This document shows, piece after piece, positions 4,672 to 17,560 of a DNA stretch of 64,000 nucleotides. The notes below the pieces were generated by a model, which had not been told where the DNA came from, did not search any database, and saw only the letters and a program-made list of their open reading frames with translations. Both the position numbers and the translations under genes were made by a program. How positions within the stretch are numbered: the first letter of the stretch is position 1; each line of letters starts with the position of its first letter. The DNA comes from Vitreimonas sp. GTDB taxonomy: Bacteria > Patescibacteriota > Microgenomatia > UBA1400 > PJMF01. Location: the NCBI GenBank assembly GCA_035627515.1, contig DASPLQ010000012.1:714331-778330 (forward strand), in the 5' to 3' direction.

Positions 4672-5763
4672 ATGGCTATTCCCAAAGCTGTCCAACGAGA
4701 TATTGAAGAACTGCTCAAAAAGGGCAAACAAGCTGGGTTCATCACTCAAGATGATGTTCTCGAAGCGTTTGTCGAGCCTGAGCTGTATATTGATGAGCTC
4801 GATGAGTTTTATGACCGCGTCATTAGCGAAGGTATCGATATCTTTGAGTCAGTCTCTGATGATGCCCAAGGTGAAGACGCCGACGTCTTGCAACGTGAGC
4901 TAGAAGTCTTATCTTCGCTTGATTCTGATGGTGTGTCTGACCCTGTCAGAATGTACCTCAAGGAAATTGGTCGCATTCCGCTTTTAAATCGTGAAGAAGA
5001 AATTCGTTTGGCTCAAAAAGCCGAGTCTGGTGATCTCAAAGCCAAAGAAAAACTGACAGCCTCTAACTTACGGTTAGTGGTCTCAATTGCCAAGAAATAC
5101 ATTGGTCGTGGCATGACGTTCTTGGATTTGATCCAAGAGGGCAACAAAGGTCTCATTCGGGCCGTCGAAAAGTACGACTGGACCAAAGGTTTTAAATTCT
5201 CAACCTACGCTACCTGGTGGATTCGCCAGGCTATTACGCGGGCCATCGCTGACCAGGCTCGGACCATCCGGATTCCGGTCCACATGGTGGAAACCATCAA
5301 TAAATTGATGCGCACCGCCCGTAAGTTGATGCAAGACCTCGGTCGTGAGCCAACTCCAGAGGAGATTGCCACCGCCATGGGCGACATGGATGCTGATAAG
5401 GTTCGTGAAATTCTCAAGATTTCTCAAAATACCACCTCATTGGAATCTCCAGTGGGTGAAAGTGATGATGACAGCGTCTTAGGCGACTTCATCGCTGATG
5501 AGCGACAAATTTCGCCTTACGAAGCTACCAGTCAACAAATGTTGCGTGAGAATGTGGAAGAGGTCCTGTCCGCACTCTCCGACCGAGAAGCTAAAGTCCT
5601 CAAAATGCGCTTTGGATTAAGTGGCAACAAGATGATGACTCTCGAAGAAGTGGGCCAAAAATTTGGCGTCACTCGCGAGCGGATCCGACAAATTGAAGCC
5701 AAGGCTCTGCGCAAGCTCAAACATCCTTCTCGACGAAAGATGCTGCAAGATTTCTTGGAGTAA
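4672..5763 (+). CDS. rpoD: RNA polymerase primary sigma factor (sigma-70)
   Basis: [16 protein letters not shown] (region 1.2), [29 protein letters not shown] (region 2.3-2.4), and a region 4 [29 protein letters not shown]. Confidence 0.92.
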
Positions 5764-7973: not shown

Positions 7974-8045
7974 TCCCCGATAGCTCAATGGCAGAGCAAT
8001 TCGCTGTTAACGAAAAGGTTCTAGGTTCGAATCCTAGTCGGGGAG
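7974..8045 (+). tRNA. tRNA-Asn (anticodon GTT)
   Basis: Hand-folded cloverleaf. Perfect 7-bp acceptor stem TCCCCGA/TCGGGGA, D-arm GCTC/GAGC, anticodon loop CTGTTAA giving GTT, T-arm CTAGG-TTCGAAT-CCTAG, discriminator G, CCA not encoded. One A-A mismatch in the anticodon stem. Confidence 0.85.
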
Positions 8046-8113
8046 CTTCTGTTTTCCATCGAGTAAAATTTCCATAGCCCTCTTGGGTTCCGAACCTTTG
8101 TTATACTTCACTC

Positions 8114-9862: not shown

Positions 9863-10624
9863 ATGACTTCAACTAATGTATCGGTAGCCGCTTTTCAAGG
9901 TCAAGCTATTTATAGTGATATTCCTAAAGCGCTTAAGGTAATCAAAGAAACACTTCAATGGGCTGAGAGCAAAGGTGTGGATATACTCTGTTTTCCAGAA
10001 TGTTACTTGCAAGGCTATACGTGGAGTGAAGAAATATCTCGTAAGGTGAGCATTGAGTTACATTCAGCAGATTTTAAACACATCCTTGAACAACTTCATA
10101 GCTATAAAACCACGGTAATATTAGGAGTAATAGAGAGAGACGCTGAGAAAATCTACAATACCGCAGTTGTAATAGAAAAAGGTAAACTCTTAGGTAAATA
10201 TCAAAAATGTCACATTCACAATAAAGAAGAGTTTTTTACATGTGGAACTGCGTATCCCATCTTTAAAAAGAAAGGCATAAAGTATGGAATTAATATCTGC
10301 TATGACTCAAGATTCCCTGACTCAACAGAAGCGTTAGCTAAACAAGGTGCTCAAGTTATTTTCAGCCCTTTAAATAATAGCTTGCCTCACGCCAAAGCTG
10401 ATGATTGGAAAGACAAGCACTTACCCTACTTTATTGAAAAAGCAAAACAAAGTGGTTGTTGGATTGTTACATCAGATGTGGTTGATAATTCAGAAACTCA
10501 CACCGGTTATGGTTGTACAGCTTTGGTTAGCCCAGATGGAAAGGTGATTGAGTATTTAGAACATTCCAAGCAAGGGAATTTTCTGAGAAAACTAAGTTTG
10601 TTCGAAAATCGTTCCAAAGAGTGA
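9863..10624 (+). CDS. carbon-nitrogen hydrolase (nitrilase superfamily)
   Basis: ILCFPECYLQGY (catalytic Glu), a KxH Lys region, and the INICYDSRFPD catalytic Cys motif: the E-K-C triad. Confidence 0.8.
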   Translation: MTSTNVSVAAFQGQAIYSDIPKALKVIKETLQWAESKGVDILCFPECYLQGYTWSEEISRKVSIELHSADFKHILEQLHSYKTTVILGVIERDAEKIYNTAVVIEKGKLLGKYQKCHIHNKEEFFTCGTAYPIFKKKGIKYGINICYDSRFPDSTEALAKQGAQVIFSPLNNSLPHAKADDWKDKHLPYFIEKAKQSGCWIVTSDVVDNSETHTGYGCTALVSPDGKVIEYLEHSKQGNFLRKLSLFENRSKE

Positions 10625-10737
10625 GTATTATCCTATAACAATTAATATTTTTCCAAACTTTAAATCTTATTTTGCTATATAAAGAAGCTATTTCAATTAA
10701 AAGAAATGTGTTAACCTGGTCTTGAAGGTTTTTATTT

Positions 10738-11361
10738 ATGCTAGAAAATAATGCACAGATAGGCTTAGAAGTTAACAAAACTCAAGACCTGGGTCCGGTA
10801 TTAAACACTAATCTAGTTGTCCCAAGAGAAAGTGTAACTGGGTTTGAGAATACTCCATGCTTGGTATTTGGTAATGGAGTTGAGATTGAGACTGTAGTCT
10901 ATGCCAAAAGTACCCAAGAGAACGTGAGAGAGATGGCCGATGGCAGAAGCGTCCTTTCATTACACCAAAGAAGAGGAAGCGATGGAGAAGGTACAGATGT
11001 AGTCAAAGTACATTTCCTACCCACAACTTCATTAGCAGAAAGGGCGTCAGATCCTGAGCAGGTGGCTGAGTCAGAGAAGTGGCACATACAAATAGATGCT
11101 ATAACAGGTTTTTTATCTATGGCGAATGCGTTTACAAAAGATCAAATTATTATTTCTAATGGCTCCTCACCTGATTATTATTTATTTATGGATACTAATC
11201 CACAATTTGCAGCCTTTATGAGATTGAGGTGTGGATTCAGAGGAACTATTGGAGGTACTCAGGTATGGATAAAAAGAAGCGAGTTCACATCAGAAGAGAA
11301 CAGAGCGCTAATGAGCAGCTTTTTAGAATCATTGAAAGAAAGAGTGAGTACTGTTTCATAA
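10738..11361 (+). CDS. hypothetical protein (207 aa)
   Basis: ORF with no recognisable motif; convergent with the 524-aa ORF, sharing a 6-nt 3' overlap. Confidence 0.4.
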   Translation: MLENNAQIGLEVNKTQDLGPVLNTNLVVPRESVTGFENTPCLVFGNGVEIETVVYAKSTQENVREMADGRSVLSLHQRRGSDGEGTDVVKVHFLPTTSLAERASDPEQVAESEKWHIQIDAITGFLSMANAFTKDQIIISNGSSPDYYLFMDTNPQFAAFMRLRCGFRGTIGGTQVWIKRSEFTSEENRALMSSFLESLKERVSTVS

Positions 11362-12930
11362 CTGGTTAATTAACTCAGATACCCATTTAGTTTGACTATC
11401 CAATGGCTTAGATAACTGTAAAGTTAGATATCCAGTTCTAGAAATGTGTGGATCATCAGAATTAGTAATCATTCTTGTGCCTGGCAATAATTCTAAAACA
11501 TGATTAACTAATTTTTCCTTATCATTTCTTATAGCGCTATCTATTTCTGAATTAACACGATGAATTCTGAAAGGAACTGTTTCCATTGCAATCAAGACAG
11601 TATCAATGTTTTTTTTGTGCAAAATAATAAGAGAACTAACTAAAGAAATTAACTTAGCTGATGGAGTTTGTGTTTTGACAAGTTCTTTGAATTCCTGTGG
11701 TAAAAAAAACTTCTTGAGTGAAGATAAGTTGAATTTTTGTTTTTGAAAGACTTCATCTTTTTCTAAGGCTTGCTGTTTCACCTTTTTATTATTGCGAAGT
11801 AAACTTATAAGATTCCATATGCGGTCTAAGTCTTCTTCAGGTTGATTTGAATTCAAATCTTTTAGCAAAACCTGTATTTTTGATTTCCACCAAAACTCAA
11901 GTGATGTTTCACTAGATTCTCTCAAATGAAGTTCAGTTAGATTTTTCTCAATAGTAGTGTAGTCGATGACATCTATTTCATTATTAAAGGTCAAAATAGT
12001 GAATAAGTCAGGAAAGTAGTTCTGTAAAATTAAAATAGCTTTATTTAATTCAATGCGGTTTCTTTCTAGAGCTAACTCAAGGCTTCTCTGTGATTGATTC
12101 TCAATTTTAGGTAATTGGATTGACTGGATAATGGCTGTAGTGGGTCCTGTAATTCCCACACGAACGTCGGGTAGCCGATATTCAGGTGCTTGTTTCCCAA
12201 TAGCTTCCAGAGGTGAAAGAGTAAATTGAAGTTCTTCAGGACCTTCATACACTAAATCCGGCGACTGGATTCGCCAACTGAGAAGTCCTTGATCTAAGGC
12301 AACTGAAGACCAAGATGTAGTATGAGCTAGAACAGTACTTTCCAACTGGTTTGCGAGCTGTTCAAAAAAAACACTGCCATGAATTAAATCACCTAGTGTC
12401 ATTTCTCTTAAATAACTTTCTACTAAGGTACTTAACCTCTCAATTGGTAACTCATTGTGAAGAAATATTCTTTGAAAATATTTCTCCCCACTATCTTGTC
12501 GCGTCTGGGTGGCTGTGATGATCCTATCAAGTGAGGTAACTAAGTTTGCTAAATCATCAACTCTAAGCAGTTTATGATAGTGGTAAAATTCCTCATTTTT
12601 ATCTTCATTATCGGGGTCTTTTTTCTCAAGATACTCAGTGTATGCATCAGGGTTATTCCAATAGCTCAATATAAATTGACCTTCGGATGTGGCGAATTGA
12701 ATAGCATCAAAGCCTAATCGACTGCGAGGTGAGAAAGAGGCACGGACAGAAAAAGAACCACTTGAGAGAAGTCTCAAAACGAGTTCTTTGCTAAGCGTAG
12801 AATTAGTTGGTGGTAAACTTTCCAAGTAGTTTTTAGCTTTGTCTAATACTTGATGAAAATTCGATTGAGGTCCTACTTCGTTGTTTGCCTTGGCTCTAAT
12901 AACTGCACCAACTGGGTATTCTAGAATCAT
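11356..12930 (-). CDS. hypothetical protein (524 aa), orphan
   Basis: Long uninterrupted ORF in AT-rich DNA. No P-loop, no nuclease, recombinase or HTH motif detected by eye. Confidence 0.5.
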   Translation of the reverse strand: MILEYPVGAVIRAKANNEVGPQSNFHQVLDKAKNYLESLPPTNSTLSKELVLRLLSSGSFSVRASFSPRSRLGFDAIQFATSEGQFILSYWNNPDAYTEYLEKKDPDNEDKNEEFYHYHKLLRVDDLANLVTSLDRIITATQTRQDSGEKYFQRIFLHNELPIERLSTLVESYLREMTLGDLIHGSVFFEQLANQLESTVLAHTTSWSSVALDQGLLSWRIQSPDLVYEGPEELQFTLSPLEAIGKQAPEYRLPDVRVGITGPTTAIIQSIQLPKIENQSQRSLELALERNRIELNKAILILQNYFPDLFTILTFNNEIDVIDYTTIEKNLTELHLRESSETSLEFWWKSKIQVLLKDLNSNQPEEDLDRIWNLISLLRNNKKVKQQALEKDEVFQKQKFNLSSLKKFFLPQEFKELVKTQTPSAKLISLVSSLIILHKKNIDTVLIAMETVPFRIHRVNSEIDSAIRNDKEKLVNHVLELLPGTRMITNSDDPHISRTGYLTLQLSKPLDSQTKWVSELINQL

Positions 12931-13038
12931 ACTTCAGTATAAAGGAGTTTATGTTTACTGCCAAACGCACACATTTTTGCTATGCTTAGTTTGTCATGGG
13001 TGAAAAAGGATTACAAACTATTGAAAATTGATAAAGTA

Positions 13039-13075
13039 TTTCGGGTAAAGTCCCACAAGGGGAGCTTTTTCTATC
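13039..13075 (+). repeat. degenerate copy of the tRNA-Asn 3' end plus flank (att-like repeat A)
   Basis: TTCGGGTAAAGTCCCACAAGGGGAGCTTTTTCT. About 27 of 31 nt identical to repeat B. GGGGAGCT matches the tRNA 3' terminus. Confidence 0.5.
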
Positions 13076-15377: not shown

Positions 15378-15412
15378 GTTCGGATAAAGTCCCACACCGG
15401 GAGCTTCTGTTT
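15378..15412 (+). repeat. direct repeat of the tRNA-Asn 3' end plus flank (att-like repeat B)
   Basis: GGGAGCTTCTGTTT (14 nt) is identical to the sequence spanning the tRNA 3' terminus and flank (8041-8054); 16 of 19 nt match over the wider stretch. Confidence 0.6.
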
Positions 15413-15559: not shown

Positions 15560-17560
15560 TTAAAAAATTATCTTAAATCTTTTCTCAGCCTCTTCAAATA
15601 GTTTTATAACTCTATCTATCGTTTCTGAAGAAAGCTTTACTTCACTCTGCTCTGTTAGCTTCAGAAAGTTTCTAGATAATAAAACCTTATCTTTTTTATG
15701 TTGTTTTATATATTCTGAGTTTTTTGAAGTGTAACTTACGCTTTCATCTTCTAAAACATACTTTTTGAAATCCTCGGCAGCAAAGATATCTTCTATAGTG
15801 CTATTGTCACTATCTAATACAGACAATATTTCCTCTTTAGATATTAACCAATCTTTTCTAAGATGCTTTTCAGCATCTTTTTTACCTTTATCGTTGTCAT
15901 ATAAGTAAAGCACATTACATCCCCATCCATTAAGAATAGTACCTACAAAAGGCATATTTCCTGACCCACCTCCAAATATGAAATTTAATATAAATTTACC
16001 GGTCAATAGCTTAAAACTATTTAGATAGTAAACATCAGATGGTCCTTCACATACGATGTTGCTTTTCTTATCTAAGTTTACAACACCAGAGGTAAGCTCT
16101 AATCCAATTGCAGTTAATAAAGGTGTTAATGTTTCTTTGTCGGCGACTTTATGAATTTTCGACTCAATATGTGTGCCAATATTATATCCAATTGTGTACA
16201 AAATCCTCCGAAGCTTTTCTTGTTCATCTTCAGTTAGCTCATCAACTTTAGTTTTTAGTTGATAGTATATCCTGTCATCTTTTTTGTGTTTTTTTTCCTC
16301 ATAATACTTCTTTAAATCGTCTGTAATTTCAGATATTTGAACTGCTTCTATTAGTTTTGGGATCTCAGCTCTTTGAACAAGTCTTATTCGATGCAATTTG
16401 TCAGTATCTATTAGATATGGTGAATGGGTTGTAAAAATAATCTTCTTTTTTTTAGAAGTATCTTCTAATTTATTTAAGATATCTCTCTGTGCAGATGCAT
16501 GTAGAAATAAGCCTGGTTCGTCTATTAATAAAATATTATCCTTTTCTTCTTTGGATCTAGCAGTTATACGAATATAGAAAGCCAGATGCCATCTTTTTCC
16601 TTGACTTCTAATTTCAGGAGGGTAATATGATTCATCTTCTCTTATTTGAAACATTAGTTGTTCTGAATCCCAGTCAATTTGAATATTAGAAAAGTCTTGG
16701 GACCAAAACCTCTTATATTCTTGCTTTAGCTGTAGGTTTAATTGTTCTTTATGTTGTAGTTTTTCATGTATCTCACCTGAAGTAATAACATTTAGATCTA
16801 AGCCAGTTATTAAAGCAAGATCCTTCATCAGGGGATGACTCTGTACATCACTTAGAGCTAATGTAGAAGGGAAAGTTTCATCAAAAGACCTAAATAGAAT
16901 AAAGTTGGGTAGTAATGTTTTTATTACTGGGATGAAATTTACTTGGATATTATTTAGCAGTGAGAGCTGATTTGCTAGTAAATCAACATTTTGGACAATG
17001 TCTAATAGTTCTTTTTTTTCTTCAGATAAAGAAAGTGCGTCTCTAAGTTTGGAAATTTTTGTGTTGTAGGTAGTAAAATCCTCTATACTATCTGGTACTA
17101 AATGATGTAGTTCTTCACGATCTCTAAAACTATTAATTAATTTTTGTAGTTGGTCTTTGGCTTTTTCTTTGATAGTAGTATACGAATCAGCAACACCAAA
17201 CAGTTGTTCATATGTTTTATCATCTATGAAATACTCTGAAGGAAACCTTTTATTAATTGTAATTTCAATACCTTGACCTTTGCTATTTGGTTCAATCTTT
17301 AGTTGTTTCTTTATTACATCATTATCAGATTCTTGAAGGGAAAATGTTAAAGCAACCTCAGGTGTCCTATCTTTCCTAAATAAAGATTTTGCTTTCTCTC
17401 TGATAGGAATATCACTATTAAAATCTTCAAGAGCCTCTAGCAAGGCTGTTTTTCCAGCCTCATTTTTACCTGCAAATATAGTAATACCATCTTCAAAATT
17501 ACATTCACCGCTATCAATAATTGACTTATAGTTTTTAACTCTGAACCTAAGTAATTTCAT
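15560..17560 (-). CDS. OLD-family ATP-dependent endonuclease (ABC ATPase N-domain + TOPRIM C-domain); GajA-like / class-1 OLD
   Basis: Walker A GKNEAGKT (aa 31-38), Walker B/D-loop ILLIDEPGLFLH (aa 343-354), H-loop FTTHSP (aa 376-381). TOPRIM Glu in IVCEGPSD (E505) and DxD in YLYDNDKGK (D555, D557), 50 aa apart as in OLD/GajA. Very AT-rich. Confidence 0.8.
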   Translation of the reverse strand: MKLLRFRVKNYKSIIDSGECNFEDGITIFAGKNEAGKTALLEALEDFNSDIPIREKAKSLFRKDRTPEVALTFSLQESDNDVIKKQLKIEPNSKGQGIEITINKRFPSEYFIDDKTYEQLFGVADSYTTIKEKAKDQLQKLINSFRDREELHHLVPDSIEDFTTYNTKISKLRDALSLSEEKKELLDIVQNVDLLANQLSLLNNIQVNFIPVIKTLLPNFILFRSFDETFPSTLALSDVQSHPLMKDLALITGLDLNVITSGEIHEKLQHKEQLNLQLKQEYKRFWSQDFSNIQIDWDSEQLMFQIREDESYYPPEIRSQGKRWHLAFYIRITARSKEEKDNILLIDEPGLFLHASAQRDILNKLEDTSKKKKIIFTTHSPYLIDTDKLHRIRLVQRAEIPKLIEAVQISEITDDLKKYYEEKKHKKDDRIYYQLKTKVDELTEDEQEKLRRILYTIGYNIGTHIESKIHKVADKETLTPLLTAIGLELTSGVVNLDKKSNIVCEGPSDVYYLNSFKLLTGKFILNFIFGGGSGNMPFVGTILNGWGCNVLYLYDNDKGKKDAEKHLRKDWLISKEEILSVLDSDNSTIEDIFAAEDFKKYVLEDESVSYTSKNSEYIKQHKKDKVLLSRNFLKLTEQSEVKLSSETIDRVIKLFEEAEKRFKIIF

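Follow-up and report, generated by a model that had tools for sequence, protein, structure and literature searches.

Peptidoglycan cannot be made without uridine diphosphate N-acetylglucosamine (UDP-GlcNAc), the synthesis of which is an antibiotic target. GlmU carries its acetyltransferase activity in a C-terminal left-handed β-helix domain. Some bacteria have no more of GlmU than its N-terminal domain, which implies "an unidentified acetyltransferase" (2026 preprint, 10.64898/2026.06.23.733835). In eukaryotes, a stand-alone GNAT protein, GNA1/GNPNAT1, is the glucosamine-6-phosphate N-acetyltransferase of the UDP-GlcNAc pathway (PMC3413214). The locus examined here also invites comparison with the tRNA-acetylating toxins of the GNAT superfamily (TacT/AtaT/KacT) and with the OLD-family defense islands (Gabija GajA, PARIS AriA, Septu PtuA, and P2 Old). 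It comprises two convergent genes, encoding proteins of 207 and 524 amino acids (aa), within a 64,000-nucleotide (nt) stretch of contig DASPLQ010000012.1, hereafter the window. An initial annotation had presented the two open reading frames (ORFs) as an orphan pair in a setting that typically hides uncharacterized defense or conflict genes. We find that the two ORFs are not a conserved two-gene system, and that two members of the 207-aa family are linked to a GlmU homolog that lacks the acetyltransferase domain.

Two real genes without a conserved partnership

The two genes and their junction are as follows.

10738..11361, + strand: 207-aa gene (ORF call), encoding a soluble alpha/beta family member with residues 1–23 disordered
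11356..12930, − strand: 524-aa gene (ORF call), from a rare, fast-evolving family
11356..11361: convergent overlap of 6 nt (TCATAA) shared by both stop regions, read from the sequence

These coordinates, and the 6-nt overlap, agree exactly with the initial annotation. In TCATAA, the last three letters are the TAA stop codon of the 207-aa gene; the first three, TCA, read on the other strand as the TGA stop of the 524-aa gene. No terminator-like site was seen at this junction, and there is no intergenic terminator. The 207-aa gene has GAAGG 8 nt ahead of its ATG, and no alternative start is available to it. The absence of recognizable motifs reported earlier was borne out: neither protein has a P-loop, neither matches Pfam, NCBIfam, PADLOC, or PHROGs (for the PADLOC-DB 2.0 hidden Markov models [HMMs], no match at E ≤ 0.1), and neither has a transmembrane segment, the maximal 19-residue Kyte–Doolittle hydropathy being 0.93 for the 207-aa and 1.22 for the 524-aa protein.

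Both ORFs are real genes. The earlier description of the two as orphans holds only in part. The 207-aa protein has 10 metagenomic relatives at 40 to 59% identity. Their alignment (A1) contains 36 invariant columns, including C41, G45-N46-G47-x-E49-I50-E51, H92, D120, D146, Y148, C165, and W177. The proportion of nonsynonymous differences (pN, 0.28–0.45) lies far below that of synonymous differences (pS, 0.67–0.85), with dN/dS of 0.15 to 0.40 where dS was unsaturated and computable; the family is under purifying selection. The AlphaFold model has a mean predicted local distance difference test (pLDDT) score of 85.8 and a predicted template modeling score of 0.82. It is because of the invariant columns, the model confidence, and the depressed pN that we regard the 207-aa gene as real. 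The 524-aa protein has three relatives, all distant. A word-indexed search returned only the protein itself, and scanning all 1.84 billion representatives exhaustively with HMMER recovered the three relatives, at 25 to 30% identity and E = 2.4e-9 to 2e-6. These E values against the whole library establish the gene as real; tblastn of the 524-aa protein against the homolog loci gave E = 2e-15 to 2e-13.

Whether the two genes belong together was judged from nine independent contexts of the 207-aa family (the window, L001-3, L004-5, L006-9, L010, L017, L018, L024, and L025) and four of the 524-aa family (the window, L011, L012-15, and L016), most of the homolog contigs being short, at 1 to 6 kb. 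The families never co-occur outside the window, with 0 of 12 other independent contexts holding both. Large neighbors of similar size in the homolog contexts turned out to be unrelated to the missing partner, and the gene that converges with P0013 encodes a TPR protein. Profile–profile comparison of the two families gave a probability of 0.1%. It is this value, together with the lack of co-occurrence, that excludes a conserved pair, and the convergent orientation means that the two genes do not form an operon. They are best explained as two unrelated genes with separate evolutionary histories, placed tail to tail by an accident of gene order.

The 207-aa family and uridyltransferase-only GlmU

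In two of its nine contexts, the 207-aa family is linked to a shortened GlmU, here called half-GlmU, in mur/mraY/ftsW clusters of uncultured bacteria.

L004:90-833: half-GlmU, 247 aa
L017:4962-5705, − strand: half-GlmU, 247 aa

In L004, the start of the 207-aa homolog overlaps the end of the 247-aa nucleotidyltransferase gene by 8 nt, and a 112-aa ORF, mraY, and ftsW follow. In L017, the homolog is divergent to a series comprising mraY (a fragment), murA, murB, murC, a PgeF-like Cu-oxidase_4 gene, the 247-aa nucleotidyltransferase gene, yvcK (encoding a UDP-GlcNAc-binding CofD relative, 270 bits), and murE (364 bits); after the homolog comes an S26 signal peptidase–CAP fusion. The two nucleotidyltransferases are 42% identical to each other, and both match GlmU equivalog models only at positions ∼1 to 240 of ∼450, scoring 184 to 207 bits, below the full-length cut-offs. 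Because the match is limited to this part of the model, both are uridyltransferase-only GlmU proteins without the β-helix acetyltransferase domain, whose activity is the one lacking from the half-GlmU beside the 207-aa homologs. The two linked homologs are only 45% identical, and no family member is more divergent than that of L017; the linkage therefore spans the deepest split of the family and is not a recent shared arrangement. Among the other contexts, an S26 peptidase and a GT2 gene lie near the homolog in L010, and an M23 peptidase and GAPDH in L006-7, whereas the homologs of L001-3, L024, and L025 are surrounded by unrelated or uncharacterized genes. Overall, the family tends to be found among housekeeping and cell-envelope genes.

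From the linkage seen in these two members, we infer that the 207-aa protein may be a cytoplasmic enzyme of cell-envelope precursor metabolism. In this general form the proposal is tentative, falling somewhat short of an even chance. A more specific version, prompted by the half-GlmU linkage and by the stand-alone precedent of GNA1 in eukaryotes, is that the protein would acetylate glucosamine-phosphate in partnership with a uridyltransferase-only GlmU. It would then be a stand-alone glucosamine-phosphate N-acetyltransferase, a nonorthologous replacement of the GlmU β-helix domain by a highly divergent GNAT-like fold, with catalysis proceeding without the canonical coenzyme A (CoA) motif, possibly via the invariant Cys, His, and Asp. 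We consider this specific version quite improbable. In that case, the copy in the window would be a displaced or laterally acquired member. Conceptually, GNA1 offers a parallel, as a small stand-alone acetyltransferase that with a separate uridyltransferase leads to UDP-GlcNAc, and a conserved cysteine lies close to its active site. The analogy is functional only: GNA1 has no detectable sequence similarity to the 207-aa protein and is not in the top 50 Foldseek matches, and its catalytic Tyr and CoA motif are without counterpart in the 207-aa family. The β-helix domain of GlmU is likewise dissimilar, since the 207-aa model is alpha/beta, an entirely different fold, and there is no Hexapep Pfam match.

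The structure searches proposed in the initial annotation yielded weak GNAT matches for the 207-aa model. In the PDB, the top 11 Foldseek matches are all tRNA-acetylating toxins (TacT/AtaT/KacT), the best at E = 0.057 and the TM-scores at 0.23 to 0.31. The top match in BFVD is a GNAT acyltransferase (the Yasminevirus acyl-CoA N-acetyltransferase; E = 2.8e-3, probability 0.90), a weak fold match overall. From residue 56, the model runs through three strands, a helix, a strand, a helix, and a strand, an order that fits the GNAT core. Differences from the superfamily are substantial: TM-scores are ∼0.3, the N-terminal α1–α2 is replaced by short strands, and neither Pfam or HMM similarity nor the Q/RxxGxG/A CoA loop is found.

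These fold matches raise the alternative that the protein is a GNAT-type toxin of a toxin–antitoxin module, like TacT, AtaT, or KacT, which is what all top 11 PDB matches are. We consider this scarcely probable at all. The matches have E values of 0.06 or worse at the TM-scores given above, CoA motif A is absent, PADLOC returned nothing, and in L004 the 207-aa homolog gene is translationally coupled to half-GlmU. The upstream genes differ in every context, with no conserved small antitoxin gene among them, and the neighbors on either side share no family except a 221/403-aa uncharacterized protein in one subgroup.

Several results weigh against the envelope-enzyme proposal and its acetyltransferase version in particular. 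No Pfam GNAT match was obtained for any of the 11 family members at E ≤ 1; hhalign of the family against a GNAT pair gave a probability of 0.16%; real GNATs scored no better than shuffles against the A1 HMM (154 of 500 shuffles reached the observed score); and the 207-aa profile had no matches among PDB sequences. By regular expression, CoA motif A (Q/R-x-x-G-x-G/A, between β4 and α3) is absent from 11 of 11 members, the corresponding region reading LP[KT]TSLAERAxDP. The searches recovered no more than 11 clusters of the family, seven of its nine contexts are without glmU, and the copy in the window has neither glmU nor mur genes in its vicinity, the window itself having no glmU.

The uniformly negative sequence-level GNAT tests and the seven contexts without glmU leave room for a rather different view, that the family is lineage specific with a nonenvelope role (e.g., binding or regulatory) and that its adjacency to glmU and mur genes arose from compact, shuffled small genomes or inherited synteny. 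Neighbors such as GAPDH, ParB, a Macro-domain protein, a PhnB-like protein, and uncharacterized proteins fit this view. We judge it rather unlikely, because chance linkage within three genes of glmU in two of nine contexts has a probability of ∼1e-3 (a rough estimate for a ∼1000-gene genome), the two linked cases differ in gene order and orientation and involve the most divergent members, and the invariant Cys, His, Asp, and Glu form a pattern that looks like an active or metal-binding site.

Two further observations concern members of the 207-aa family and their neighbors. A domain family without a Pfam match, with the motif FNDDPNQGYKFHLNVKPENVRQVA...GKIFTVYTGSK, is encoded at L008:247-912 and L024:433-1644 (55% identity over ∼220 aa) and recurs upstream of the long-N-terminus 207-aa subgroup, immediately in L008 and two genes up in L024. 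At L018:1218-1628 lies a decayed copy of the 207-aa family, with its N-terminal half missing and an in-frame stop in CGFRGN*RSG; this contig also carries a Mrr-type restriction enzyme and a tyrosine recombinase.

The 524-aa family

The three relatives of the 524-aa protein align to residues ∼150 to 524. Conserved blocks in their alignment (A2) span residues 176 to 200 (DLIHG/P), 251 to 275 (VRxGI..PT.AII.SIQ.PKIE), 426 to 475 (including FRxHR and D464), and 501 to 524, whereas residues 1 to ∼150 and the central helices (∼281–420) are variable and lineage specific. The charged, helical C-terminal repeats attributed to this protein by the initial annotation did not materialize: there is no off-diagonal self-match at E ≤ 50, and a single lysine-rich helical stretch is present at ∼376 to 420. 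The AlphaFold model, built from a four-sequence alignment, is of low confidence (pLDDT 50.6). All Foldseek matches to it are subthreshold (E ≥ 0.39); GNATs make up about half of the best 50 and are a lead at most.

The homolog P0014 occurs on 14 contigs, with a neighborhood common to 11 of them. It lies in a tight, codirectional run of a GNAT gene, a TehB-like methyltransferase gene, a purO-like IMP cyclohydrolase gene, P0014, and a dCTP-deaminase-like gene. This block (L012:5391-11238) is located between tRNA-Gly and tRNA-Cys and has a GC content of 33 to 38%, versus 41 to 43% in its flanks. Its GNAT and methyltransferase genes are not orthologous to those in the window. The whole set, in which the PurO-like IMP cyclohydrolase is archaeal-type and the dCTP-deaminase-like gene is short, is an unusual mix for a bacterium.

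Two of the four contexts of the 524-aa family are AT-rich blocks adjoining tRNA genes. Such settings, the extreme rarity of the family (three relatives at 25–30% identity in 1.84 billion representatives), and the lineage-specific N-terminal region and central helices would suit an island cargo gene that, on its own, serves a conflict role (defense, antidefense, or addiction) and evolves in an arms race. This is distinctly unlikely in our estimation: no defense genes adjoin any homolog, P0014 keeps company with purO-like and dCTP-deaminase-like genes of nucleotide metabolism in an arrangement alike on 11 of 14 contigs, PADLOC and PHROGs were negative, and the family is not on phages or plasmids. 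The 524-aa protein is most safely described as a rare accessory protein that evolves quickly and has an enzyme-like core. It may belong to a very rare accessory family of AT-rich, tRNA-adjacent blocks, in which a conserved alpha/beta core would be split by a variable helical insertion.

One promoter-like site lies directly upstream of the 524-aa gene.

12936..12964, − strand: TTGGCA-17-TATACT, the best match of the region (10/12), ending 6 nt before the 524-aa ATG

Its position suggests a leaderless or near-leaderless 524-aa mRNA. The total count of promoter-like sites in the region is not above shuffled expectation, and this site is a lead only. On the opposite strand, at 12940-12989 (+), a strong Shine–Dalgarno-like AAGGAG stands 5 nt before an ATG at 12951 that opens an ORF of only 12 codons (MFTAKRTHFCYA), located in the intergenic interval from the 524-aa start to the att-like repeat described below.

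The tRNA-Asn-linked region and the defense question

The surroundings of the two genes contain the following features.

7974..8046, + strand: tRNA-Asn(GTT), which anchors the variable region (ARAGORN and Rfam, 68.8 bits)
9863..10624, + strand: carbon–nitrogen hydrolase gene, the upstream neighbor (Pfam CN_hydrolase, E = 4.5e-34)
13040..13067, + strand: att-like repeat resembling the tRNA 3′ end, closing the segment that holds both ORFs (repeat family D1; alignment with the tRNA 3′ half)
15379..15412, + strand: second att-like repeat, sharing GGGAGCTTCTGTTT with the tRNA-Asn 3′ end and flank (families D1 and D9; alignment)
15560..17560, − strand: OLD/AAA_15-type ATPase gene, 666 aa (Pfam AAA_15, E = 9e-22; PADLOC AriA, PtuA, and Old, E = 2e-22 to 4e-18)

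As the initial annotation had it, the two ORFs lie between a nitrilase-type gene and an att-like repeat, in AT-rich DNA. Every NCBIfam match of the hydrolase is under its cut-off. The two 28-nt repeat copies (13040-13067 and 15379-15406) are 89% identical to each other, with two matches in the window versus zero expected; both resemble the T-arm and acceptor 3′ end of the tRNA, and the second additionally has the TTCTGTTT located after tRNA-Asn. They have diverged from the tRNA, matching it at 19 of 23 nt. With the tRNA and the first repeat as bounds, both ORFs fall in a segment of ∼5 kb. GC content at third codon positions (GC3) is 0.22 to 0.37 for the genes between 8.1 and 20 kb, versus 0.39 to 0.50 upstream, in the core genes for malic enzyme, glutamate dehydrogenase, RpoD, and a PIF1-like helicase, so that tRNA-Asn is followed by ∼12 kb of low-GC3 DNA punctuated by tRNA-3′-end-like copies. 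A stretch of 24 nt with 79% identity (AAAGAGTGAGTA...ATAAC) recurs at the 3′ ends of the CN_hydrolase and 207-aa genes (10616-10639 and 11339-11362), a similarity that may be due to chance.

Relatives with an RpoD at least 90% identical have wholly different genes downstream of rpoD, and none of the proteins encoded at 8 to 22 kb of the window is present in their loci. In the relative L022 (11155-21095), rpoD and tRNA-Asn are followed by a serine recombinase gene that directly adjoins the 3′ end of the tRNA; the element continues with an HTH gene, a MamI-type endonuclease gene, an N6/N4 methyltransferase gene, a second serine recombinase gene, and a Prim-Pol gene. Because this element is integrated at the same tRNA, tRNA-Asn is an active integration hotspot in this lineage. 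The L022 insertion and the differences among the close relatives show that the variable, tRNA-linked region is real. Of the features of a tRNA-linked island, four were observed, namely the tRNA, the repeats, the low GC3, and variability among relatives; no integrase or recombinase gene was found in 8 to 21 kb of the window. The 1.41-Mb source contig, whose proteins include HYD35142–HYD35152 with locus tags VD999_037xx, is labeled "MAG TPA: Vitreimonas sp." RpoD of the window (4672-5763, 363 aa) can be aligned over its full length with short SigA proteins of 368 to 390 aa, and proteobacterial RpoDs (613–652 aa) align with it only from about residue 102 to 118. Since this short-SigA-like RpoD and a GC content of ∼41% do not suit an alphaproteobacterial genus, the NCBI label "Vitreimonas sp." is doubtful, and the metagenome-assembled genome is probably misclassified.

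A known defense nuclease was said to lie next to the two ORFs. An OLD/AAA_15-type ATPase gene does lie in the same variable region, resembling in this the OLD-family defense islands, but it is 2.6 kb from the 524-aa start, with four unrelated genes in between, and belongs to a different segment beyond the second repeat. Neither ORF matches the partner proteins of those systems, and the homologs have no such association. The ATPase gene itself is solitary, with no recognizable AriB, PtuB, or GajB partner beside it; it also matches PADLOC GajA and has the lowest GC3 in the window (0.216).

The idea that both ORFs form an uncharacterized two-gene defense or conflict module on a tRNA-linked island draws on this setting: AT-rich, variable DNA beside tRNA-Asn, an OLD-type ATPase gene 2.6 kb away, a mobile element at the same tRNA in a relative, and two proteins without a known domain. 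We consider it very improbable. It is largely refuted by the finding that the families are never together in other contexts, and convergent orientation excludes an operon. The OLD gene lies past an att-like repeat, and neither family was found among IMG/VR viral contigs, GenBank phages, or PLSDB plasmids. The neighborhood comparison suggested in the initial annotation revealed no enrichment for defense: no known defense system lies near the homologs, and PADLOC on the ORFs and the neighbors of their homologs gave a sole match, among the neighbors of the 524-aa homologs, of a generic methyltransferase domain to mad2. Neither family consists of widespread syntenic core genes with assigned functions. 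Our account as a whole, in which an unrelated pair arose by accident, the 207-aa protein is an envelope-precursor enzyme, and the 524-aa protein is a rare accessory, seems to us evenly poised between right and wrong.

In the form in which it was first posed, the finding is an ordinary one, two hypothetical genes juxtaposed in a flexible region, and it has little value as a defense lead. The 524-aa family adds one more very rare accessory family without an assigned function. The one lead worth pursuing is the linkage of the 207-aa family to half-GlmU; if the proposed role is true, the family would be a concrete candidate for the missing acetyltransferase in at least one lineage of uncultured bacteria.

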